Part shown: one piece after another, positions 10,401 to 62,905 of the stretch
How positions within the stretch are numbered: position 1 is the first letter of the stretch
Layout: each line of letters begins with the position of its first letter
Assembly: GCA_963707915.1 (NCBI GenBank)
Contig: OY970178.1
Location: 701,821 to 765,820 of the forward strand
Length of the DNA stretch: 64,000 nt
Direction of reading: 5' to 3'
DNA from: Candidatus Eiseniibacteriota bacterium
Lineage (GTDB): Bacteria; Eisenbacteria; RBG-16-71-46
Notes under the pieces: generated by a model
The model's database searches: none
Told to the model about the DNA's origin: nothing
The model's input: only the letters and a program-made list of their open reading frames with translations
Translations under genes and position numbers: made by a program

Positions 10401-10476
10401 GCGGGCATAGCTCAGTTGGTAGAGCGCGAGCTTCCCAAGCTTGAGGTCGCGGGTTCGACCCCCGTTGCCCGCTCCA
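10401..10476 (+). tRNA. tRNA-Gly (anticodon CCC)
   Basis: 76-nt cloverleaf folded by hand: acceptor GCGGGCA/TGCCCGC, D-arm GCTC-AGTTGGTA-GAGC, anticodon loop TTCCCAA, T-arm GCGGG-TTCGACC-CCCGT, discriminator T, encoded CCA. Confidence 0.9.
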
Positions 10477-14036: not shown

Positions 14037-14113
14037 CGGGGCGTAGCGCAGCCCGGTAGCGCACCTGCATGGGGGGCAGGGGGTCGAAGGTTCAAATCCT
14101 TTCGCCCCGACCA
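14037..14113 (+). tRNA. tRNA-Pro (anticodon GGG)
   Basis: 77-nt cloverleaf: acceptor CGGGGCG/CGCCCCG, D-arm GCGC-AGCCCGGTA-GCGC, anticodon stem CCTGC/GCAGG with loop ATGGGGG (U33, G37), T-arm GAAGG-TTCAAAT-CCTTT, encoded CCA. Confidence 0.9.
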
Positions 14114-14697: not shown

Positions 14698-15690
14698 GTG
14701 CACATCCCCGACGGCTTCCTCGACGCGAAGACGGCGGTGACGACCGGCGTGCTGGCGACCGCCGGCCTGGGGCTGGCGCTGGCAGCCGTGCGTCGCACCG
14801 TCCCCCCGCGGCGGATTCCGTTGATCGGCCTGGCGGCGGCCTTCGTCTTCGCCGCGCAGATGCTCAACTTCCCGGTCGCGGGCGGGACCTCGGGGCACCT
14901 CATCGGAGCCGTGCTCGCGGCGGTGCTGCTCGGTCCGGCCGCCGCGGTGCTGGTCATGAGCGCCGTGCTCATCCTGCAGTGCCTGATGTTCGCCGACGGG
15001 GGCGTGACGGCGCTCGGCGCGAACCTGTTCAACATGGCGCTGGTCGCGCCGACCGTGGGCTACGTCGTCTACCGCGTCCTGCGACGCGTCGCGGGGGAGG
15101 GGTTGCGCGGGCGGCTCTTCGCCACGGCCTTCGCCGCCTGGTCCTCGACCGTCGCCGCCGCGCTCTCCTGCGCCGGGCAGCTCGCGCTGTCGGGCACCGT
15201 CCCGCTGCGGGCCGCGCTGCCCGCGATGGGCGGCGTCCACATGTTCATCGGCCTCGGCGAGGCCGTCATCACCACCCTCGTGGTCGCGGCGGTCGCCCGG
15301 GCGCGCCCCGAGCTGCTGCTCGAACCGGCCGGACCGGGGCCACGGCCGCGCCTGGGCGAGCTCGCGGCGCGGGGTCTGCTGGTCGCGCTGGCGCTGGCGC
15401 TCTTCGTGGCGCCATTCGCCTCGCGCTGGCCCGACGGCCTCGAGCGGGTCGCCGCGACCCTGGGCTTCGAGCACCGGGCGGCGCCCCCCGTCCTCGCTTC
15501 CCCGCTCCGCGACTACCGCTTCCCCGGGATCGGCTCCGCCGCGCTCGCCACGGGCATCGCCGGCGGCGCCGGCACCCTGGTCGCGTTCGTCCTGGCCTGG
15601 TTGCTCGCCACCCTGCTGACGCCTTCCCGCGGCGCCGGCGCCCCGCGGGGCGGGAAGGGGCCCCATGGCGATGCGCCGCGCCCTGCTTGA
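14698..15690 (+). CDS. cbiM: ECF transporter substrate-specific component CbiM/NikM with C-terminal PDGLE-motif domain
   Basis: Canonical CbiM N-terminus MHIPDGFLD (GTG start translated as M); multi-TM; C-terminal extension containing WPDGLERVA (PDGLE-domain-like); RBS aaggaggga. Confidence 0.85.
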   Translation: MHIPDGFLDAKTAVTTGVLATAGLGLALAAVRRTVPPRRIPLIGLAAAFVFAAQMLNFPVAGGTSGHLIGAVLAAVLLGPAAAVLVMSAVLILQCLMFADGGVTALGANLFNMALVAPTVGYVVYRVLRRVAGEGLRGRLFATAFAAWSSTVAAALSCAGQLALSGTVPLRAALPAMGGVHMFIGLGEAVITTLVVAAVARARPELLLEPAGPGPRPRLGELAARGLLVALALALFVAPFASRWPDGLERVAATLGFEHRAAPPVLASPLRDYRFPGIGSAALATGIAGGAGTLVAFVLAWLLATLLTPSRGAGAPRGGKGPHGDAPRPA

Positions 15691-16285
15691 GCCGTACCAG
15701 CACCGCCCGAGCGCGATCCACCGGCTCCCGGCGGGGGTCAAGGCCGGCGCGGCGCTCGCGTTCGTGCTCGCCGTCGTTCTGCTGCCCCGCGCGTCGTGGG
15801 CCGCCTACGGGGCCGGGGCGGGGCTGCTGCTGCTGGTCGCCGGGCTCTCGCGCATCGCGCCGGCGGCGCTCGCCCGCCGGCTCCTGCTGGTCGAGCCCTT
15901 CGCCCTCGGCGTCGCGCTGCTCACGCTCCTGCAGCCGGACGGGGTCCGGGTCTTCGCCGTCACGCTGACCCGGAGCACGCTGTGCCTGTCCTGCATGGTG
16001 CTGCTCTCCGCCACGACGCGCTTCTCCGCCGTCCTCGGCGTGCTCCGGCGCGTCCGCGTCCCGTCCCTGCTGGTCACCACGCTGGCGCTCATGCACCGCT
16101 ACCTCTTCGTGCTCGCCGACGAGGGCGGCCGCATGGCGCGCGCCCGTCGCAGCCGCACCTTCACCGCGGACCGCGCGTCGGCCTGGCGCTCGTCCGCCTC
16201 GGTCATCGCGCACCTCTTCGTGCGCAGCAGCGAGCGCGCCGAGCGCATCTACGCGGCGATGTGTGCGCGGGGCTGGAGGACATGA
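15665..16285 (+). CDS. cbiQ: ECF transporter transmembrane (T) component CbiQ/NikQ
   Basis: 206-aa hydrophobic protein with CbiQ-like Arg-rich C-terminal region; overlaps cbiM by 26 nt and cbiO start. Confidence 0.75.
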   Translation: MAMRRALLEPYQHRPSAIHRLPAGVKAGAALAFVLAVVLLPRASWAAYGAGAGLLLLVAGLSRIAPAALARRLLLVEPFALGVALLTLLQPDGVRVFAVTLTRSTLCLSCMVLLSATTRFSAVLGVLRRVRVPSLLVTTLALMHRYLFVLADEGGRMARARRSRTFTADRASAWRSSASVIAHLFVRSSERAERIYAAMCARGWRT

Positions 16286-17030
16286 ACGCGCTGGAGGTCC
16301 GGGGCCTCGGCTACCGCTACCCCGACGGCACGACCGCCCTTCACGACGTCCGATTCGACGTGGCCGAAGGCGAACGCGTGGCGCTCATCGGTCCCAACGG
16401 CGCCGGCAAGTCCACGCTGCTGCTCCACCTCAACGGGCTGCTGCCCGAGCGTGCGGCCGCGGTCCCCGCCGTCCACGTCTTCGGCAACCCGGTCGCCGAG
16501 CCCCACCTGGCGGCCATCCGGGCCCGCGTCGGACTGCTGTTCCAGGACCCGGACGACCAGATCTTCTGCCCGACCGTGTGGGAGGACGTCGCGTTCGGCC
16601 CGCAGCAGCTCGGCCTGCGCGGGGCCGACCTCGCCGCCCGCGTGAACGCGGGCCCTCGACCAGGTCGGCCTCGCGGGCTTCGACGAGCGCCTGCCCCATC
16701 ACCTCAGCCGGGGCGAGAAGCGCCGTGTCTGCCTGGCGGGCCTGCTCGCCTGCGAGGCCCGCCTGCTGGCGCTGGACGAGCCGACCAGCGACCTCGACCC
16801 GCGCGGCCGCCGGGAGCTGAAGGGCCTGCTCGCGAACCTCCCGGTGGCCCAGGTGATCGCGACCCACGACCTCGAGCTGGTGGTCGAGCTCTGCCCGCGC
16901 GTGATCGTGCTCGACCGGGGGAGCGTGGTGGCACAGGGGCCGACGCGCGGAGCTGCTCGCGGACGAGGACCTGATGCTGGCGCACGGCCTCGAGCGACCG
17001 CACGTCCTCCGCCACCGGCATCCGCACTGA
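16282..17030 (+). pseudogene. cbiO: ECF transporter ATPase CbiO/NikO, disrupted by two +1 frameshifts (pseudogene or sequence error)
   Basis: Walker A GPNGAGKST and Q-loop LLFQDPDDQ in frame 1 (16282 to about 16647); signature LSRGEKRR, Walker B LLALDEPTSDLD, H-loop IATHDLE in frame 2 (about 16652-16948); C-terminus ELLADEDLMLAHGLERPH in frame 0 to stop 17028-17030. Confidence 0.8.
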
Positions 17031-17092
17031 GCCCGCGGCGCCCCGGGCGCGGGCTTGCAAGTTGCCGGTCCGCGCCGCAAAGTGACTCCGAC

Positions 17093-20103: not shown

Positions 20104-20180
<77 letters not shown>

Positions 20181-33818: not shown

Positions 33819-34086
33819 CCGGGGCCGTCACGGCGCGGCGGCGTCCTTCGCCGGCCCGGGACCCGCGGCCGGGCGATCGTCCGCGTCCTTTCGCGCGGTG
33901 GGCGACAGGCCGCCGTGCTCATCCACCGGCGGGCGCCGCTGACCCTGCTTCCGCCACGCCGACTCCCGCGCTCGTCACCCGATTGCACCCTTCCCACGGC
34001 ATGCGCGCGCGGTGTACTCTTCCCGCTTCCGCCGCCAGCCCATGGCGGCCATCCATTTTGGCGCCACGCGCCTCGGGAGGTCTTCG

Positions 34087-35595
34087 ATGGCAGCACAGCC
34101 CGCCGTCCCCACGTACGCCCCGCGCGGCTACGAGTTCGCCGACGCGGGCCTGGCCCGCAACTGGATCGGCGGCGAGTGGCGCGATTCGTCCACCGGCGCC
34201 ACCCTGGACGTCGAGAACCCCCGCCACGGCCGCACGATGGGCCGGGTGGTCGTCTCGCCCCCGGCCGACGTGGACGCCGCCGTGCAGGCGGCCCGTGCCG
34301 CCCTGCCGGGCTGGCGCGCGCTGGCGCTGCGCGAGCGCGCCCAGGTGCTCTACCGCCTCAAGGCCATCCTCGAGCGCGACATGGAAGAGCTGTGCTGGCT
34401 GCTCTCCGCCGAGAACGGCAAGGTCTACAGCGAGGCCCTCGGCGACGTCGGCAAGGGCATCGAGTGCATCGAGTTCGCGGCCTCGCTCGCGATGGGCGGC
34501 GCCGGACCGCAGCTCGACGTGAGCCGCGGCGTGAACTGCAAGGTCAGCTACGAGCCGCTCGGCGTGGTCGCCGGCATCACGCCGTTCAACTTCCCGATGA
34601 TGGTGCCGCTCTGGATGATCCCGAATGCGCTGATGGGCGGCAACGCCTTCATCCTGAAGCCCGCGTCCAGCGTCCCCTTCGGCCCGACCCGCATCGCCGC
34701 CGCGTTCGAGGAGGCCGGCCTGCCCCGGGGGATCCTCAACATCGTCAACGGGCGCCGCGAGGTGGTGAGCGCCATCGTCCAGCACCCCGGCATCGCCGCC
34801 GTGCAGTTCGTCGGCTCGACCGCGGTCGCGAAGAGCCTCTACGCGCAGGGCGCGTCCCTCGGCAAGCGCATGATGTGCCTGGGCTCGGCGAAGAACCACG
34901 CCATCGTGGTGCCCGACGCCGATCCCGAGCTCACCGCCTCGACCATGGTGGCCTCGGCGTACGGCTGCGCGGGCCAGCGCTGCATGGCCGCCACGCTCAT
35001 GGTCGCCGTCGGCGACGTGCAGCACATCATCGACGACATGGCCCGGCGCACGCGCCTGCTGAAGCTCGGCCAGGACATGGGCCCGATCATCACCCGCGAG
35101 GACCACGCGCGCATCCTGGCGCACATCGACCGGGCCGAGGCGATGGGCGCCCGGATCCTGGTGGACGGCCGCAAGGCCACCGTCGACGGCTGCGCCGGAG
35201 GCCACTGGATCGGCCCGACGCTCCTCGATGGCGTCACCCCGGACATGCCGTGCGCCCGCGAGGAGATCTTCGGGCCGGTGTTCGGCATCGTGCACACCCG
35301 GACGCTGGACGAGGCCATCGACTTCGCCAACGGCAGCCCTTACGGCAACGGCGGCGCCATCTTCACGCAGAGCGGCAACGTCGCCCGGATCGCGGCCGAG
35401 CGGCTCGACGTCGGCATGTTCGGCGTGAACATCGGCATCCCGGTGCCGCGCGAGCCGTTCGCCTTCGGCGGCTGGAAGGACAGCGGCTTCGCCCACATGG
35501 ACATCACCGGCCTGGACGGCTTCCGCTTCTGGACCCGTACCAAGAAGACCACCGAGAAGTGGGCGCAGCAGGCCGGCGGATCGTGGATGTCGTGA
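34087..35595 (+). CDS. mmsA: CoA-acylating (methyl)malonate-semialdehyde dehydrogenase
   Basis: ALDH superfamily; MMSDH-type features (catalytic Cys in GQRCMA, GSAKNHAIVVPDAD); RBS gggagg. Confidence 0.85.
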   Translation: MAAQPAVPTYAPRGYEFADAGLARNWIGGEWRDSSTGATLDVENPRHGRTMGRVVVSPPADVDAAVQAARAALPGWRALALRERAQVLYRLKAILERDMEELCWLLSAENGKVYSEALGDVGKGIECIEFAASLAMGGAGPQLDVSRGVNCKVSYEPLGVVAGITPFNFPMMVPLWMIPNALMGGNAFILKPASSVPFGPTRIAAAFEEAGLPRGILNIVNGRREVVSAIVQHPGIAAVQFVGSTAVAKSLYAQGASLGKRMMCLGSAKNHAIVVPDADPELTASTMVASAYGCAGQRCMAATLMVAVGDVQHIIDDMARRTRLLKLGQDMGPIITREDHARILAHIDRAEAMGARILVDGRKATVDGCAGGHWIGPTLLDGVTPDMPCAREEIFGPVFGIVHTRTLDEAIDFANGSPYGNGGAIFTQSGNVARIAAERLDVGMFGVNIGIPVPREPFAFGGWKDSGFAHMDITGLDGFRFWTRTKKTTEKWAQQAGGSWMS

Positions 35596-35727: not shown

Positions 35728-37116
35728 ATGCGGGTGCTCATCAAGAACGGCACCGTCACGACCTCGGTCGACTCCTGCAAGGCCGACGTATGGATCGACG
35801 ACGGGACCATCGTCGCGGTCGCCGCCCCCTCGGCCCGCGCCCGCTTCGAGGCGGACCGCGAGATCGACGCCACCGGCAAGCTGGTGATGCCGGGCGGCAT
35901 CGACGTCCACACCCACCTCGACATGCCCTTCATGGGGACGGTGTCCAAGGACGACTTCGAGACCGGCACGATCGCCGCGGCCCACGGCGGCACGACCACG
36001 ATCATCGACTTCGCCATCCAGGCGCGCGGCGCGGCGCTGCGGGCCGGCCTCGACGCCTGGCACGCCAAGGCCGAGGGCAAGGCGGTCATCGATTACGGTT
36101 TCCACATGATCATGTCCGACGTCAACCCGGCCACGCTCGACGAGATGCAGGGGCTGGCCGGCGAGGGCATCACCTCCTACAAGCTGTTCACGGCCTACCC
36201 GGGCGCGCTCTACTCGGACGACGGCCAGATCCTCCGCGCGCTGCAGCGGGCCCGGGAGGTCGGGGCGCTGGTGCAGATGCACGCCGAGAACGGCATCGCC
36301 ATCAACGCGCTCATCGAGCAGGCCGTCGCGCGCGGCGAGACCGCGCCCCGCCACCACGCCCTCAGCCGGCCGGAGATCGCCGAGGCCGAGGCCACGCACC
36401 GTTCGCTGTGCCTCGCCGAGATCGCGGGCGCACCCATCTACATCGTGCACCTCACCGCCACGCGCGCGCTCGAGGCGGTGACGCGCTTCCGCGAGCGCGG
36501 GCTGCCGGTGTACGCCGAGACCTGCCCCCAGTACCTCTATTGCTCGCTCGACGACATCTCGCGCGAGGGGTTCGAGGGCGCCAAGTTCGTCTGCAGCCCG
36601 CCGGTCCGGCCGAAGGCCATGCAGGACGACCTCTGGCGCGGCCTCGCGAACGGCAACCTCCAGGTGGTGGCCACCGACCATTGCCCGTTCGACTTCGCCA
36701 CCGACAAGCAGATGGGGCGCGAGGTGTTCACCCGGATCCCCAACGGCATGCCGACCATCGAGACGCGGCTGCACCTGCTGTGGGAGGGCGTGCACACCGG
36801 CCGCATCACCGCGCAGCGCTTCGTCGACGTCGTCTCGACCGCCCCGGCGAAGCTGTTCGGGCTCTATCCCCGCAAGGGCACCATCGCCCCCGGGGCCGAC
36901 GCCGACCTGGTGGTCTGGGACCCCGCGAAGCGCCAGGACCTCTCGGTCGCCCACATGCACATGCGCGTCGACTACTCACCCTACGAGGGCAAGGTGGTGC
37001 AGGGCGCTCCCGACCAGGTCCTGTCCCGCGGCCGTGTCATCGTCGACGGCGGCACGTTCCTCGGCCAGCGCGGCACCGGCCGGTTCCTCAAGCGCGCGGC
37101 GTTTTCGCCCATCTAG
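35728..37116 (+). CDS. Dihydropyrimidinase / D-hydantoinase
   Basis: Cyclic amidohydrolase motifs (PGGIDVHTHLDMPFMG, carbamylated-Lys region TSYKLFTAY, VATDHCPF). Confidence 0.85.
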   Translation: MRVLIKNGTVTTSVDSCKADVWIDDGTIVAVAAPSARARFEADREIDATGKLVMPGGIDVHTHLDMPFMGTVSKDDFETGTIAAAHGGTTTIIDFAIQARGAALRAGLDAWHAKAEGKAVIDYGFHMIMSDVNPATLDEMQGLAGEGITSYKLFTAYPGALYSDDGQILRALQRAREVGALVQMHAENGIAINALIEQAVARGETAPRHHALSRPEIAEAEATHRSLCLAEIAGAPIYIVHLTATRALEAVTRFRERGLPVYAETCPQYLYCSLDDISREGFEGAKFVCSPPVRPKAMQDDLWRGLANGNLQVVATDHCPFDFATDKQMGREVFTRIPNGMPTIETRLHLLWEGVHTGRITAQRFVDVVSTAPAKLFGLYPRKGTIAPGADADLVVWDPAKRQDLSVAHMHMRVDYSPYEGKVVQGAPDQVLSRGRVIVDGGTFLGQRGTGRFLKRAAFSPI

Positions 37117-37125
37117 GAGAGCACG

Positions 37126-37998
37126 ATGAGCCCTGTCGTCCGCTGTGGCCTGATCCAGTGCAGCAACCCGCTGAACGATCCGTCGCGTCCGATCGCCGAG
37201 ATCCAGCGGGCGATGATCGACAAGCACCTGCCGTTCATCGAGGCGGCGGGGGAGAAGAAGGTCCAGATCCTCGGCTTCCAGGAGATCTTCAACGGGCCGT
37301 ACTTCTGCCCGAGCCAGGACCCCCGGTGGTACGAGGCGGCCGAGCCCGTCCCGGGGCCCACCACCGAGCTGATGGCGGGCTACGCACGGCGCTTCGAGAT
37401 GGCGATGGTGGTGCCGGTGTACGAGCAGGCCGCGCGCGGCGTGTTCTTCAACACCGCGGCGGTCCTCGACGCCGATGGCCGCTATCTCGGCAAGTACCGC
37501 AAGCAGCACATCCCGCACGTCGCCGGCTTCTGGGAGAAGTTCTTCTTCACCCCGGGGGACGGCGGCTACCCGGTGTTCGCCACGCGCTACGCCCGGGTCG
37601 GCGTGTACATCTGCTACGACCGCCACTTCCCCGAGGGCGCGCGCTGCCTCGGCCTGAACGGGGCCGAGATCGTCTTCAACCCGAGCGCGACCGTGGCAAG
37701 CGTCTCGCGGCACCTGTGGAAGCTCGAGCAACCCGCGCACGCGGTGGCCAACGGCTACTACGTGGCCGCGTCGAACCGCGTCGGCACCGAGCCGCCGTGG
37801 AACATCGGCCGCTTCTTCGGCAACTCGTACTTCGTGAGCCCCCGTGGCCAGATCCTCGCCGAGGCCAGCGAGGACCAGGACGAACTGCTGGTCGCCGACC
37901 TCGACCTCGCCTTCATCGACGAGGTCCGCAAGTCCTGGCAGTTCTACCGTGACCGTCGGCCCGATGCGTACCACGAGATCGAGCGTCGATTCTCGTAG
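37126..37998 (+). CDS. Nitrilase-superfamily N-carbamoyl amidohydrolase (beta-ureidopropionase / N-carbamoyl-amino-acid hydrolase)
   Basis: CN-hydrolase catalytic triad context (FQE, YRKQH, VYICYDRHFPE); adjacent to dihydropyrimidinase. Confidence 0.75.
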   Translation: MSPVVRCGLIQCSNPLNDPSRPIAEIQRAMIDKHLPFIEAAGEKKVQILGFQEIFNGPYFCPSQDPRWYEAAEPVPGPTTELMAGYARRFEMAMVVPVYEQAARGVFFNTAAVLDADGRYLGKYRKQHIPHVAGFWEKFFFTPGDGGYPVFATRYARVGVYICYDRHFPEGARCLGLNGAEIVFNPSATVASVSRHLWKLEQPAHAVANGYYVAASNRVGTEPPWNIGRFFGNSYFVSPRGQILAEASEDQDELLVADLDLAFIDEVRKSWQFYRDRRPDAYHEIERRFS

Positions 37999-38055
37999 CC
38001 GCGGGCCCGCCGGCGCCCGCGGTGGCGCCGGTCCCCCGGCTTCGGCGACTGGAGA

Positions 38056-39381
38056 GTGGTGATGAACACGCAGGAGATGATCGATCTCTGCAAGCAGCAC
38101 ACGATGTACACCTGGGCGGCCACCGACCAGGTCACGCCACTGCCCGTCGCCCGCGCCCAGGGCGTCTACATCTACACGCCCGAGGGCCGGCGCATCCTCG
38201 ACTTCAACAGCGCAGCTGATGAGCGTGCTCATCGGCCACCACCACCCCCGCGTCATCGCGGCGATGAAGGCCCAGCTCGACGAGCTGATCTACGCGTACC
38301 CGCAGACCGCCACGGCGGTACGCGCGCGGCTGGGCAAGCTGATGGCCGAGGTCATCCCCGGCTTTCACACCTTCTTCTTCACGCTCGGCGGCGCCGAGGC
38401 CAACGAGAACGCCATCCGCGCCGCGCGCCTCTACACCGGGCGCCAGAAGATCCTGAGCCGCTACCGCAGCTACCACGGCGCCACCAACCTCACGATGCAG
38501 CTCACCGGCGACCCGCGCCGCTGGCCGAGCGAGCCCGGCTCCCCGGGCATCGTCCGCGTGATGGACCCGCAGCCCTACCGGTTCTCGTTCGGCAGGACCG
38601 ACGAGGAGAAGACCGCCGCGAACCTCGCCTACCTCGAGGAGATCATCGAGTACGAGGGCCCGCACACCATCGCGGCGATGATCATCGAGACGGTCACCGG
38701 CACCAACGGCGTGCTCCCGCCGCCCGCCGGCTACCTGCAGGGCCTCAAGCGGCTGCTCGAGAAGCACGGCATCCTGCTGATCTGCGACGAGGTGATGTGC
38801 GGCATGGGCCGCACCGGCAAGATGATGGCCTACGAGCACGGCGGCATCGTTCCCGACATCGTGCACGATGGCCAAGGGGCTCACCAGCTCCTACTTCCCG
38901 CTCGGCGCCATGGGCGTCTCCGACGCCATCGCCGCGCACTTCCGCAAGAACGTCTTCTGGGGCGGCCTCACCTACAACTCGCACCCGCTCGGCCTCGCCA
39001 CGGCGGAGGCGGTCATCCAGGTGATGATCGACGAGAAGATGATCGAGAACGCCGCCCGGCTCGAGCGGGTGATGCGGCGGGAGATGGACCGGCTCCAGGC
39101 GAAGCACCGCTCGGTGGCCGAGGGCCGCTGCATCGGCCTGTTCGGGATGATCGACATCCGCAAGAACGCCAAGCGGCGACTCGATCGCGCCGTACAACGG
39201 CAGCCACCCGGCCATGGCGAAGCTCCAGGCGTTCTTCCGCGAGAACGGCCTGTTCACCTTCGTGCGCTGGTCCAGCTTCACCTGCAAGCCGCCGCTGTGC
39301 ATCACCGAGGAGCAGCTGCTCGAGGGCTTCGAGATCATCGATCGCGGCCTCGACATCACCGACGCGGCGTTCGAAGGATAG
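38056..39381 (+). pseudogene. Class-III (omega) aminotransferase, likely beta-alanine aminotransferase; disrupted by three +1 frameshifts
   Basis: Four in-frame segments that concatenate into a roughly 440-aa class-III aminotransferase: frame 1 38056-38211, frame 2 38213-38863, frame 0 38868-39173, frame 1 39175-39381 (stop TAG 39379-39381). Confidence 0.8.
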
Positions 39382-39462
39382 GAGAGAAAGGCGTGACCGC
39401 AACACCCCGGTGCGAGCTCGCGGCAGAGACCGTGACTTCCCCGCTCCACGGCCGCAACCCCC

Positions 39463-40857
39463 ATGGCGATTTCGCACCTGTCGGGAGGTGACGTGCTGAA
39501 AGCCGCAAGACGGACGACCCAGAGGCTCAAGAACCTGACGGACATGGAGGTCGGGTTCACGCTGTCCCAGGCCATCGCGGAGGCCTCGCGCTGCCTGCTG
39601 TGCCACGACGCGCCGTGCTCCAGGGGTTGCCCCGCCGGCACCGACCCGGGCACGTTCATCTGGAAGCTGCGGGTCCGGAACGTCCGCGGGGCGATCCGGA
39701 CGATCCGGCAGAACAACCCGCTGGGCGGGGTCTGCGGCGTCGCCTGCCCGGTCGAGCGCCTGTGCCAGAAGAACTGCAGCGCCACCGGCATCGACCGGCC
39801 GATCGAGATCGGCCGGCTCCAGCGGTTCCTGGTCGAGCAGGGCTGGGGCATGGGGTTCGACCCCATCGCCCAGGCGCCACCGCGGAAGGAGTCCGTGGCC
39901 ATCGTCGGGTCGGGCCCCGCCGGGCTCACCTGCGCCGTGGAACTGGCGCGCGCCGGCATCCAGGCCACGGTCTTCGAGGCCCGACCGCGACCGGGCGGCG
40001 TGCTGCGCTACGGCGTGCCCCGGTTCCGCCTGCACGAGGAGTTCCTCGACCGCGAGCTCGAGGACGTCCGCAAGCTCGGCGTCACCTTCCGCTGCAACAC
40101 CACGATCCAGCGCGACCAGGCGGGACGGCTGCTCGAGAAGGGCTACGCCGCGGTGTTCATCGCCCCGGGGGTGTGGGAGCCCCGGCGCCTGCCCCTGCCG
40201 GGAGCCGGCCTCCGGAACGTGACCACGGCCACCGAGCTGCTCGCGGGGGTCCGCGCCGGCGCCGCGGCCGCGGTCGCCCGGATGGTCCGCAAGAAGAACG
40301 TCGCCATCATCGGCGGCGGCTCCGTCGCCATGGACGTCGCCAGCACCTGCAAGGCCCTCAGCGCCGCCAAGGTGTACTGCATCTGCCTCGAGAGCCTGGC
40401 CGAGATCCCGGCGTCGAAGGCCGATCTCGGCATGGCGCTCGAGAACTTCGTGGTCGTCAAGCCGCAGGCGCAGGTCACGCGGATCCTGGGACTGGCCGGC
40501 AAGGTCACCGGCGTGCAGGGCATCGAGACCGTGTGGAAGCGGCCCGGCTCGTTCGCGCCCGCCAACGCCCGGCCCGTGCCTGGCACCGAGTTCAAGCTGC
40601 GGGTCGACGCGGTGGTCTTCTCGATCGGCTCCGGCCCCGCCGCGGAGGGCCGGGAGCTCGCCGCCGGCCTCAAGACCGCCCGCGACGGGCTGATCCAGAC
40701 GAAGCGGGACGGGGTCTCCACCTCGAAGCCCGGGATCTTCGCCGGCGGCGACATCGTGCGCGGACCGGCGCTCATCGTGAACGCCGTGGCCGACGGCAAG
40801 GCGGCCGCGAAACGCATCCTCGAGTCGCTGGGCGCGGGGGAGAACCACCATGACTAG
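39463..40857 (+). CDS. preT: NAD-dependent dihydropyrimidine dehydrogenase subunit PreT (glutamate synthase small-subunit-like)
   Basis: N-terminal Fe-S cluster Cys motifs (EASRCLLCHDAPCSRGCPAGTD, CGVACPVERLCQKNC) matching E. coli PreT as I recall it; FAD/NAD Rossmann motifs (IVGSGPAGL, IIGGGSVAMD); start ATG 39463 or GTG 39493. Confidence 0.8.
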   Translation: MAISHLSGGDVLKAARRTTQRLKNLTDMEVGFTLSQAIAEASRCLLCHDAPCSRGCPAGTDPGTFIWKLRVRNVRGAIRTIRQNNPLGGVCGVACPVERLCQKNCSATGIDRPIEIGRLQRFLVEQGWGMGFDPIAQAPPRKESVAIVGSGPAGLTCAVELARAGIQATVFEARPRPGGVLRYGVPRFRLHEEFLDRELEDVRKLGVTFRCNTTIQRDQAGRLLEKGYAAVFIAPGVWEPRRLPLPGAGLRNVTTATELLAGVRAGAAAAVARMVRKKNVAIIGGGSVAMDVASTCKALSAAKVYCICLESLAEIPASKADLGMALENFVVVKPQAQVTRILGLAGKVTGVQGIETVWKRPGSFAPANARPVPGTEFKLRVDAVVFSIGSGPAAEGRELAAGLKTARDGLIQTKRDGVSTSKPGIFAGGDIVRGPALIVNAVADGKAAAKRILESLGAGENHHD

Positions 40858-42091
40858 TCACCGGGACCTCAGCGTCGAGATGTGCGGGGTGACGTTCCCC
40901 AACCCGTTCATGCTCTCGTCCTCGCCGGTCTCCAACACCGCCGAGATGATCGGCCGCGCGTTCGATCACGGTTTCGGCGGCACGGTCTACAAGACCATCG
41001 TCGACGACAAGACCAAGATCATCCACCCCTCGCCGCGGATGGCGAGCTACGACGTCGGCACCCGGCGGATCGTCGGCGTGCAGAACGTCGAGCAGACCAC
41101 CGACCGCTCGCTCGCCGACAACCTGGCCGACATCCGCTACCTCAAGAAGAACTGGCCCCGGCACGTGCTGATCGTGAGCATCATGGGCTTCAGCGAGGAC
41201 GAGTGGGTCATGCTCGCCCGGGCCAGCGAGGACGCCGGCGCCGACATGGTGGAGCTCAACTTCTCCTGCCCGCACATGACGGTCGAGGGGTCGGGGATGA
41301 AGGTCGGGCAGGCGATGGAGCTGGTCGAGCGGTTCACCGCCGCCGCGCGGCGCGCCATCCAGGTCCCGATCCTGGCCAAGCTCACCTCCAACGTCACCGA
41401 CATCACCGTGCCCGCGCGGTACGCGAAGAACGGCGGCGCGGACGGCATCACCGCCATCAACACCGTCCGGGCCCTCACCGAGGTCGGGCTCGACGACCTG
41501 GTCCCCAGGCCGAACGTGTTCGGCAGGGGCGCGATGAGCGGCTACTCGGGGCCGGCGATCAAGCCCATCGGACTCAAGTGCGTCACCGAGCTGGCCAAGT
41601 GCGCGGAGCTGGGCCTGCCGATCTCGGGCTGCGGCGGCGTCGAGACCTGGGTCGACGCGGTCGAGTACCTGGCCTGCGGGGCCTCGACCGTCCAGATGAC
41701 CACCGGCGTCATCCACTACGGCCAGCGCATCGTCGAGAGCCTCAACGAGGGGCTGGCCGACTACCTCGACCTGAAGGGACTCGCGAGCGTCGGGCAGCTC
41801 GTCGGCGCCGCCCTGCCCAACGTCCATCCCACCGACGCCTTCGACCTCACGCGCCAGGGCGTGGCCGACTACGACCTCACGCGCTGCGTCGGCTGCGGCC
41901 AGTGCTTCATCGTCTGCCAGGACGCCGGCGGCCAGAACCTGCGATGGGACGACCGGAAGCGGCGGCCGATCCTCAACGACGAGGGCTGCCTGAGCTGCAT
42001 GGTCTGCAGCTTCGTCTGCCCGGTCGACGGCCTGATCACCTACCGCGAGGTCAAGGACAAGAAGGCCGTCGTGCCGCCGGTCTCGGTCTAG
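40850..42091 (+). CDS. preA: NAD-dependent dihydropyrimidine dehydrogenase subunit PreA (DHODH-like TIM barrel plus C-terminal 2x[4Fe-4S] ferredoxin)
   Basis: DHOD-like motifs (GVTFPNPFMLSSSP, ELNFSCPHM, GADGITAINT) and two C-x2-C-x2-C-x3-C ferredoxin motifs; overlaps preT stop by 8 nt. Confidence 0.85.
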   Translation: MTSHRDLSVEMCGVTFPNPFMLSSSPVSNTAEMIGRAFDHGFGGTVYKTIVDDKTKIIHPSPRMASYDVGTRRIVGVQNVEQTTDRSLADNLADIRYLKKNWPRHVLIVSIMGFSEDEWVMLARASEDAGADMVELNFSCPHMTVEGSGMKVGQAMELVERFTAAARRAIQVPILAKLTSNVTDITVPARYAKNGGADGITAINTVRALTEVGLDDLVPRPNVFGRGAMSGYSGPAIKPIGLKCVTELAKCAELGLPISGCGGVETWVDAVEYLACGASTVQMTTGVIHYGQRIVESLNEGLADYLDLKGLASVGQLVGAALPNVHPTDAFDLTRQGVADYDLTRCVGCGQCFIVCQDAGGQNLRWDDRKRRPILNDEGCLSCMVCSFVCPVDGLITYREVKDKKAVVPPVSV

Positions 42092-61186: not shown

Positions 61187-61786
61187 ATGAAGACGGCACT
61201 TGCTCTCGCGTTGGGAATGCTCCTCGCATCCTCCGCACTTGCCGAGCCTCCGCAAAGGAAGAATGAGGTCTTCATCGGAGTCGGCTCTGGCCCCGTCGTC
61301 TTCGTCCTGCAGGCGATTGGGGACGTGTTCGTCGACGTCGCATTCCACGGCGGGGGCAGCTACCGGACCGAGGGTTCGGGCGGCGGGCAATTCGTGGCCG
61401 GATACCAGCATCGGTTCAACCGTTTGCTGGGGGCTGGCGCGAGCGGATCCTGGGCCAAGATCAGCGAGGATCTGTACCGGGAGGGCGAGAACCAGAAGCT
61501 CTCCACGACCACCCGCCAGATGGTGACGATTCAGGTGGACGGGCGCCTGCACTGGGTCGACTGGCGTTGGGGGGGGCTCTACTCGAACGTCGGCCTGGGC
61601 TTCGCCGCGCGCCACTACGAGTACACCGACGATGAGTACCACGTCTCGTTTTCGCACGACTGGAGCCACGCCGCCGTGAACCTGATCCCGCTGGGCGTCC
61701 GCCTCGGGGGCGACGTCGCCGGGCACCTCGAGATCGGCGGCGTCACGAACAGCTGGGTCACCGCCGGGCTCTCCTACCGCTTCTAG
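61187..61786 (+). CDS. Small outer-membrane beta-barrel protein (OmpW/OmpA-like), C-terminal Phe
   Basis: Signal peptide MKTALALALGMLLASSALA; alternating hydrophobic beta-strand pattern; ends ...SYRF; RBS gaaggagg. Confidence 0.6.
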   Translation: MKTALALALGMLLASSALAEPPQRKNEVFIGVGSGPVVFVLQAIGDVFVDVAFHGGGSYRTEGSGGGQFVAGYQHRFNRLLGAGASGSWAKISEDLYREGENQKLSTTTRQMVTIQVDGRLHWVDWRWGGLYSNVGLGFAARHYEYTDDEYHVSFSHDWSHAAVNLIPLGVRLGGDVAGHLEIGGVTNSWVTAGLSYRF

Positions 61787-62905
61787 GCTCCAGGCGATGG
61801 CTGGCATCCCCGGCGTGCGGCTCCATCAAGCCGGCGCGCCGGGGATGTCGGTTTCCGCACGGCAAAGGCCAGCGCCACGCCATTCAGGACGTTGCCGTGG
61901 TGGTCAGCCGGGTGTTCGAAATCGGCGACCGCAGCCAGTCTGCTCCGAGTCCCTACGGAGGAGCCGGAGGAACGGGCAAGGCCACTTGGCATATCCTTGA
62001 AGGCCCTGGGGCCGCTGTCTCGGCAGCCGCGCGGCTCAGACGCTTCGGGACAGGAAGAGTGACGCTCGAGACCAGCACCAAAGCGGGACCAACAACCCGT
62101 GCACTTGCGCCCACAACCGCGGACCCGTAGCCACGCAGGGTAAGCAGGGTGCTGACCAGCTGCGTAGGTCCGCCGACCTGCCGGCTTCAGGCTGACCGAT
62201 GGCGGGAAGGCCACCACGCTGGCCAGGTCCTTCCGGCCGATGGTGAGCGTACCGAGGTGGCCGGTCCCGGCCCTCCGTGCTCAGGCACGGGCGAACGCCT
62301 GCCGTTGAGCTCTTCGTGTAGGTTCCTGCGATGTCCGGCAGATTGCAGCGTTCCACCGCCGCGGGAGACGGTGCCGGGGTCGCCGACCGCGGAGTCTCCG
62401 CGCGCTGTAGCCCGAGCAGAATGCACGCGGCGAGCGCACAAGGGATGAACCAGGGGAGGAAACGCGCGACCGTCCGGGTGAACGCAGAGCGACGAGGGTC
62501 CAGGTCTTGGTGGCACTCCTTCGACCTGGGGGAGGGCCTCCTGCACGATCGAGTGTTGCGACTCACAACGGAGTCGCCTGCGAAGCCGTCAGCACGCCAC
62601 GGCGGCCACCGGGGAGTTCGCAGCCACGACGCGGTTGCGTGGCCAGATCCTCCGAGACCACGAGGCGACATGTTACGCCTCGACCCGTCATGTACAAGGC
62701 TTCTTCGGACGACGGTCTGACGGACCGCGTGCCTGCTTGATTTCCCCCCTGAGCGAAGTGCGCTATCTTGCTGCCGCGTGGCCCCGTAGCTCAGACGGAT
62801 CGAGCAGCGGTTTCCCAAGACGTCACGGGCAAGCTGCGTCGCATCGTGTCGGCACGCGCCGAACCGTGCGCGCCCGGCTGCGGGGCCACCGAGGAGACGC
62901 CCCCG

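Follow-up and report, generated by a model that had tools for sequence, protein, structure and literature searches.

Does this bacterium lack a working aminotransferase in its pyrimidine-degradation pathway, or does the deposited sequence misrepresent an intact gene? The question arises from a class-III aminotransferase gene on the plus strand of the 64,000-nucleotide stretch analysed here (the window). In a three-frame translation of positions 38056–39390, homologous reading of this gene passes through four frames in series, from 0 to +1, to +2 and back to 0. The first-pass annotation had left two explanations side by side, very recent pseudogenisation and localised sequence error. Both fit the anatomy of the gene, while a test for substitution decay, a second damaged gene (cbiO) and a Logan contig from a public read set tilt the balance toward error. 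We place the probability that the three frameshifts are sequence errors in the deposited assembly consensus, and not marks of pseudogenisation, at roughly 0.7.

Anatomy and homology of the split gene

Translation starts at ATG 38062, which is preceded by a GGAG motif, rather than at GTG 38056. From there, the gene runs through four segments that are separated by three single extra bases (Table 1), and as deposited it holds no single continuous ORF of ~440 codons. A pattern search shows that the extra bases, which had been located near 38212, 38864 and 39174, lie at exactly these positions. The second of them is found three codons 5' of the codon for the PLP-binding lysine. Deletion of G 38212, C 38864 and C 39174 yields an ORF of 1317 nt encoding 438 aa, and the expectation that removal of three bases would restore a protein of about 440 aa is borne out by gapless alignment to intact homologues of ~439 aa.

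Table 1. Coordinates of the features discussed, numbered from the first base of the window.
Feature	Position	Strand	Evidence or remark
tRNA Gly-CCC	10401–10476	+	
tRNA Pro-GGG	14037–14113	+	
CbiM	14698–15690	+	5' of cbiO
CbiQ	15665–16285	+	5' of cbiO
CbiO (ECF/cobalt transporter ATPase)	16282–17046	+	two +1 shifts, see text
tRNA Pro-CGG	20104–20180	+	
CoA-acylating (methyl)malonate-semialdehyde dehydrogenase (MSDH), intact	34012–35595	+	TIGR01722, 496 bits (cut-off 448.5); Pfam Aldedh; 34012 is the longest-ORF start, true start probably near 34100–34160
Dihydropyrimidinase (PydB), intact	35728–37116	+	TIGR02033, 594 bits; 462-aa product on record for the source contig
Beta-ureidopropionase-type CN hydrolase (PydC), intact	37126–37998	+	profile match; cluster members called beta-ureidopropionase by JGI
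Shine-Dalgarno-like GGAG	38051–38054	+	7 nt 5' of the ATG, read directly from the DNA
Aminotransferase, PydD-type, in four frames	38062–39381	+	PRK06062 on the repaired protein
Segment 1, aa 1–50, MNTQ...DFNS	38062–38211	+	window frame 1
Extra G, AACAGC[G]CAGCTG, first +1 shift	38212	+	pattern search; base absent in 10/10 relatives covering the site
Segment 2, aa 51–267, QLMSV...PDIV	38213–38863	+	window frame 2
Extra C (or adjacent G), ATCGTG[C]ACGATG, second +1 shift	38864	+	pattern search; base absent in 11/11 relatives
Segment 3, aa 268–370, TMAKGL...RKNAK, with the PLP lysine in TMAKGL	38865–39173	+	window frame 3
Extra C, GCCAAG[C]GGCGAC, third +1 shift, back to the starting frame	39174	+	pattern search; base absent in 11/11 relatives
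Segment 4, aa 371–438, GDSIAPYNG...AAFEG, and TAG stop	39175–39381	+	frame of segment 1
Dihydropyrimidine dehydrogenase subunit (PreT/PydA1-like, GltD-like), intact	39493–40857	+	family matches
Dihydropyrimidine dehydrogenase subunit (PreA/PydA2-like, DHO_dh + 4Fe-4S), intact	40850–42091	+	domain matches

The repaired protein matches the NCBIfam profile PRK06062 with 485.5 bits (cut-off 472), its residues 4–435 covering profile positions 17–452 of 454. Over its full length it is 74–85% identical to 120 intact proteins, mostly of 439 aa, and the best of these, an intact protein of ~439 aa, shares 85% identity over 100% of the length. Most members of this set come from metagenomes; the few named ones are mostly MAGs of Myxococcota or Deltaproteobacteria. 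In the protein alignment to these homologues, neither a gap nor a lost residue is present at the junctions DFNS/QLMSV, PDIV/TMAKGL and RKNAK/GDSIAPYNG. Moreover, when the DNA was aligned with that of 11 relatives taken from genomes and metagenomes, no relative had the extra base at a site that it covers. Since the repaired protein aligns without gaps to homologues encoded by single ORFs and the extra bases are missing in the relatives, the damage consists of three single-base insertions in one gene. The Schiff-base lysine K271 in the TxAKG motif, the aspartate D242 of CDEV and the other invariant columns are all kept.

A contig scan with exact peptide patterns found the best relatives to be 73–76% identical. 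No exact match was obtained in the protein collection for the repaired protein (438 or 440 aa) or its repaired 196-aa C-terminus, nor for three guessed N-terminal fragments and the two frameshift ORFs, and a homologue search with the C-terminal 196 aa returned nothing above 83% identity.

Irregular copies also occur elsewhere in this gene family. The closest DNA relative (L032; JGI contig Ga0182022_1328339, positions 2–1319; 85% amino acid identity) is itself spread over three frames (ORFs 2–736, 694–1089 and 1086–1319), its two shifts being of the sign opposite to those in the window gene and located at other positions, near aa 228 and aa 354. They are probably errors of a low-coverage contig, and the gene still represents a second broken copy in the same family. 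Additionally, several homologues on long contigs of 70–160 kb (e.g. P0137, P0141, P0187 and P0204) measure just 233–294 aa; they may be truncated at contig edges or represent additional frameshifted copies from other assemblies.

The surrounding pyrimidine-degradation operon

The aminotransferase is embedded in an operon with the order MSDH, PydB, PydC, aminotransferase, PreT/PydA1 and PreA/PydA2 on one strand, and thus shares its locus with the genes expected around a PydD. Family matches and gene order confirm the pyrimidine-catabolism context that had been proposed for this cluster. In relatives, too, the aminotransferase gene adjoins the MSDH gene, and at times that for PydB or PydC. The pathway logic that follows from family assignments and gene order is straightforward: uracil or thymine would be reduced, the ring opened, and N-carbamoyl-beta-alanine hydrolysed to beta-alanine, which the aminotransferase would convert to malonate semialdehyde and MSDH further to acetyl-CoA.

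Within its large and well-populated family the aminotransferase is typical, and the pathway cluster to which it belongs is a known one. Judged from family assignment and gene order, it most likely functions as an ordinary PydD-type beta-alanine (omega-amino acid) aminotransferase. Its close homologues bear the JGI name taurine--2-oxoglutarate transaminase. Because the gene lies in a pyrimidine-degradation operon beside MSDH, beta-alanine or beta-aminoisobutyrate is more likely to be the physiological substrate than taurine. The state of the neighbours likewise favours a functional gene, since MSDH, which has a substrate only if the aminotransferase works, is intact, as are the other genes of the pathway.

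Insertions in cbiO, the public record and a second assembly

We scanned the whole 64 kb with a codon-usage Viterbi model and checked each frame change on the same strand for a stop codon. Besides the three aminotransferase shifts, the scan revealed an anomaly near 16651, within cbiO. The earlier view that the neighbouring pathway genes are intact thus stands, but the window is not otherwise clean, as cbiO carries two further +1 shifts. These are single-base G/C insertions near 16650 (GTGAACGCGGGCCCTC) and 16947 (ACGCGCGGAGCTG), after which cbiO ends out of frame. Repaired CbiO has the length most frequent among its homologues (248 aa), is 91% identical to its best intact homologue of 248 aa, and matches PRK13652 in one stretch with residues 1–241. 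Thus, an unrelated gene at a distance of ~21 kb carries the same insertion-only damage as the aminotransferase.

Altogether, the window contains five frame-breaking events in 2 of its ~50 genes, and all five are single G/C insertions, with no deletion among them. The three in the aminotransferase (3/5 events) lie outside any base run. Each of the five can be read as an additional C flanked by purines on one strand or the other (G[C]G in three cases, G[C]A and A[C]G in one case each), a pattern that may be an error-context signature. At three other candidate sites, 2881 (minus strand, YfiH-like), 19853 (Pcm tail) and 56510, the translations showed no frameshift. In a segment of ~1.1 kb at 61782–62882, no frame shows a coding signal and the GC content is 66–70%, compared with 72% for the window; the segment gave no Rfam or tRNA match.

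Neither damaged gene displays the relaxed constraint of a genuine pseudogene. When the repaired aminotransferase is set against the 120 homologues, it matches all 131 near-invariant columns and all 184 columns that are conserved to at least 95%, while intact homologues have 2.2 mismatches on average in the same column test. Likewise, repaired CbiO has 0 mismatches at 141 conserved columns. In bacterial mutation spectra, about one indel arises per ten substitutions, and natural indels lean to deletions and repeat tracts. The absence of conserved-column mismatches in both genes therefore argues against all but an extremely recent or insertion-specific process, and a spectrum of G/C insertions alone, 3/5 of them outside base runs, is unlike that of natural bacterial indels.

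The shifts are present in the public record. Two frameshift products, of 320 aa and 55 aa, are listed for the source NCBI/ENA contig (3,623,634 bp), and hence the shifts were already there and were not introduced into the window. For the same reason, planted or synthetic mutations were rejected as an explanation. The source is presumably a long-read metagenome assembly.

A different version of the gene is suggested by an independently assembled Logan contig of 5747 bp from run ERR12037368, which encodes a PreA-like protein of 413 aa identical to that of the window. The four genes called downstream on this contig each correspond to a window ORF with a proper start and stop codon, all at one and the same offset (38789). 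The first gene on the contig is an ORF of 196 codons that is open to the contig edge and whose stop is separated from the next gene by 111 nt, the same spacing as in the window. Before this stop, 76 codons are open in the window, 184 after removal of 39174 alone and 432 after removal of 38864 and 39174. A 196-codon ORF thus requires that the contig lack 38864 as well as 39174, a comparison that uses gene-call geometry in place of DNA and spans two of the three sites. The ERR12037368 read set therefore appears to contain the 3' 45% of the gene without interruption, on a contig that in other respects is colinear with the window.

The contig begins at window position 38788, inside the aminotransferase gene and ~75 nt 5' of 38864, and the Logan contigs around the locus are short (1.5–5.7 kb), which suggests low coverage or strain variation at the locus in that read set. 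The contig could also represent a co-occurring intact allele instead of the same molecule. Look-ups of exact products in the protein collection, with PydC and with PydB at two alternative starts, found no Logan contig that covers 38212. Similarly, none was found over the cbiO shifts, as the gene after cbiO is not on record and the contig with CbiQ ends before them. A literature search for the run accession ERR12037368 found it in no paper.

Origin of the insertions and comparison with known systems

Sequence error is favoured because neither gene has decayed, because cbiO shows the same insertion-only damage, and because the Logan contig appears to read through two of the three aminotransferase sites. 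A local patch of low quality in the consensus would have produced the three single-base G/C insertion errors, and a second patch would affect cbiO; in the organism, the aminotransferase ORF would most likely be continuous. The alternative, a real and very recent pseudogenisation or a polymorphic loss-of-function allele, would place the insertions in at least part of the population and abolish transamination of beta-alanine. It agrees with the presence of the frameshifts in the deposited record, with the clustering of three events in the aminotransferase and two in cbiO, a pattern that genes already dead would show, and with the break of the Logan contig near 38788, which could reflect allelic variation in the sample. 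We nevertheless consider it unlikely. Three indels would imply tens of substitutions and ~8 changes at conserved columns, so that the chance of finding none among 184 is well below 0.01; the events are +1 G/C insertions throughout, three of them outside base runs; the 3' 196 codons are uninterrupted in ERR12037368 according to gene-call geometry; and MSDH, which depends on the transamination step, is intact. A further reading, which we regard as very improbable, is that the insertions are real and that an insertion-specific process struck the aminotransferase and cbiO repeatedly without substitution decay. This could be due to a mutator lineage prone to single-base G/C insertions, or to several independent, selected loss-of-function alleles merged in one consensus.

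Recoding would leave the insertions in the genome and still yield the full-length enzyme, by programmed +1 ribosomal frameshifting or a related event on the shifted mRNA. The three shifts add up to +3 and bring the first and last segments into the same frame, and each segment is perfectly conserved. Yet no relative carries an extra base at any covered site, which leaves no conserved signal, and a prfB-type programmed shift was rejected on this DNA alignment. Further, the sites AGC-G-CAG, GTG-C-ACG and AAG-C-GGC permit no re-pairing of the P-site tRNA in the +1 frame, inspection found neither a zero-frame stop or obviously slow codon downstream nor a common motif, and cbiO with its two shifts ends out of frame. 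We therefore hold recoding to be extremely improbable. Still more remote is a split enzyme whose segments are separate genes. ORFs starting with ATG at 38219 and 38868, near two of the junctions, would suit such an arrangement, but all close homologues are single ORFs of ~439 aa, and the comparison with orthologues proposed in the first-pass annotation thus speaks against separate genes. Moreover, the junctions fall within conserved motifs without intergenic spacers, the PLP lysine motif is cut at PDIV/TMAKGL, and the first start codon of the last segment comes only at 39214; the split enzyme was rejected by the orthologue alignment.

If the insertions are errors, genes in this assembly are split by single-base insertion errors that occur in local patches, and the public gene calls at the aminotransferase locus (320 aa and 55 aa) are wrong. 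A metabolic reconstruction from these calls would falsely score the organism as unable to use beta-alanine derived from pyrimidines. If they are real, the organism has very recently lost one step of an otherwise complete MSDH-PydB-PydC-PydD-PydA operon, and a mutator or selected alleles would point to active, recent and targeted loss of beta-alanine catabolism and cobalt uptake in a wild population. Most likely, the frameshifts are not a feature of the organism.

As in split-gene artefacts of long-read assemblies, the window has isolated, locally clustered single-base indels in otherwise perfectly conserved ORFs, which appear to be contradicted by another assembly of the sample's reads. The classic residual errors of long reads are homopolymer-length errors; in contrast, 3/5 of the window insertions lie outside any base run.

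With regard to the enzyme, bacterial Pyd clusters with PydA (split into PydA1 and PydA2), PydB, PydC, PydD and MSDH have been described (PMC7332683). The window gene has the same position and logic as PydD of these extended clusters, a likeness drawn from cluster context, and in its operon MSDH takes the place of the reductase PydE as the sink. Among solved structures, the closest is the taurine:2-oxoglutarate aminotransferase Toa (PDB 6JIX; E 1e-96), to which residues 4–430 of the repaired protein align with chain positions 9–441 in one stretch over all junctions. Like Toa, the repaired aminotransferase is a class-III, fold-type I PLP enzyme. However, Toa is only a distant homologue, while the window gene belongs to a pyrimidine-degradation operon beside MSDH and is, as given, in four frames. 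The subfamily profile PRK06062 carries no functional name, and the unrepaired fragments would each score against it only in part.
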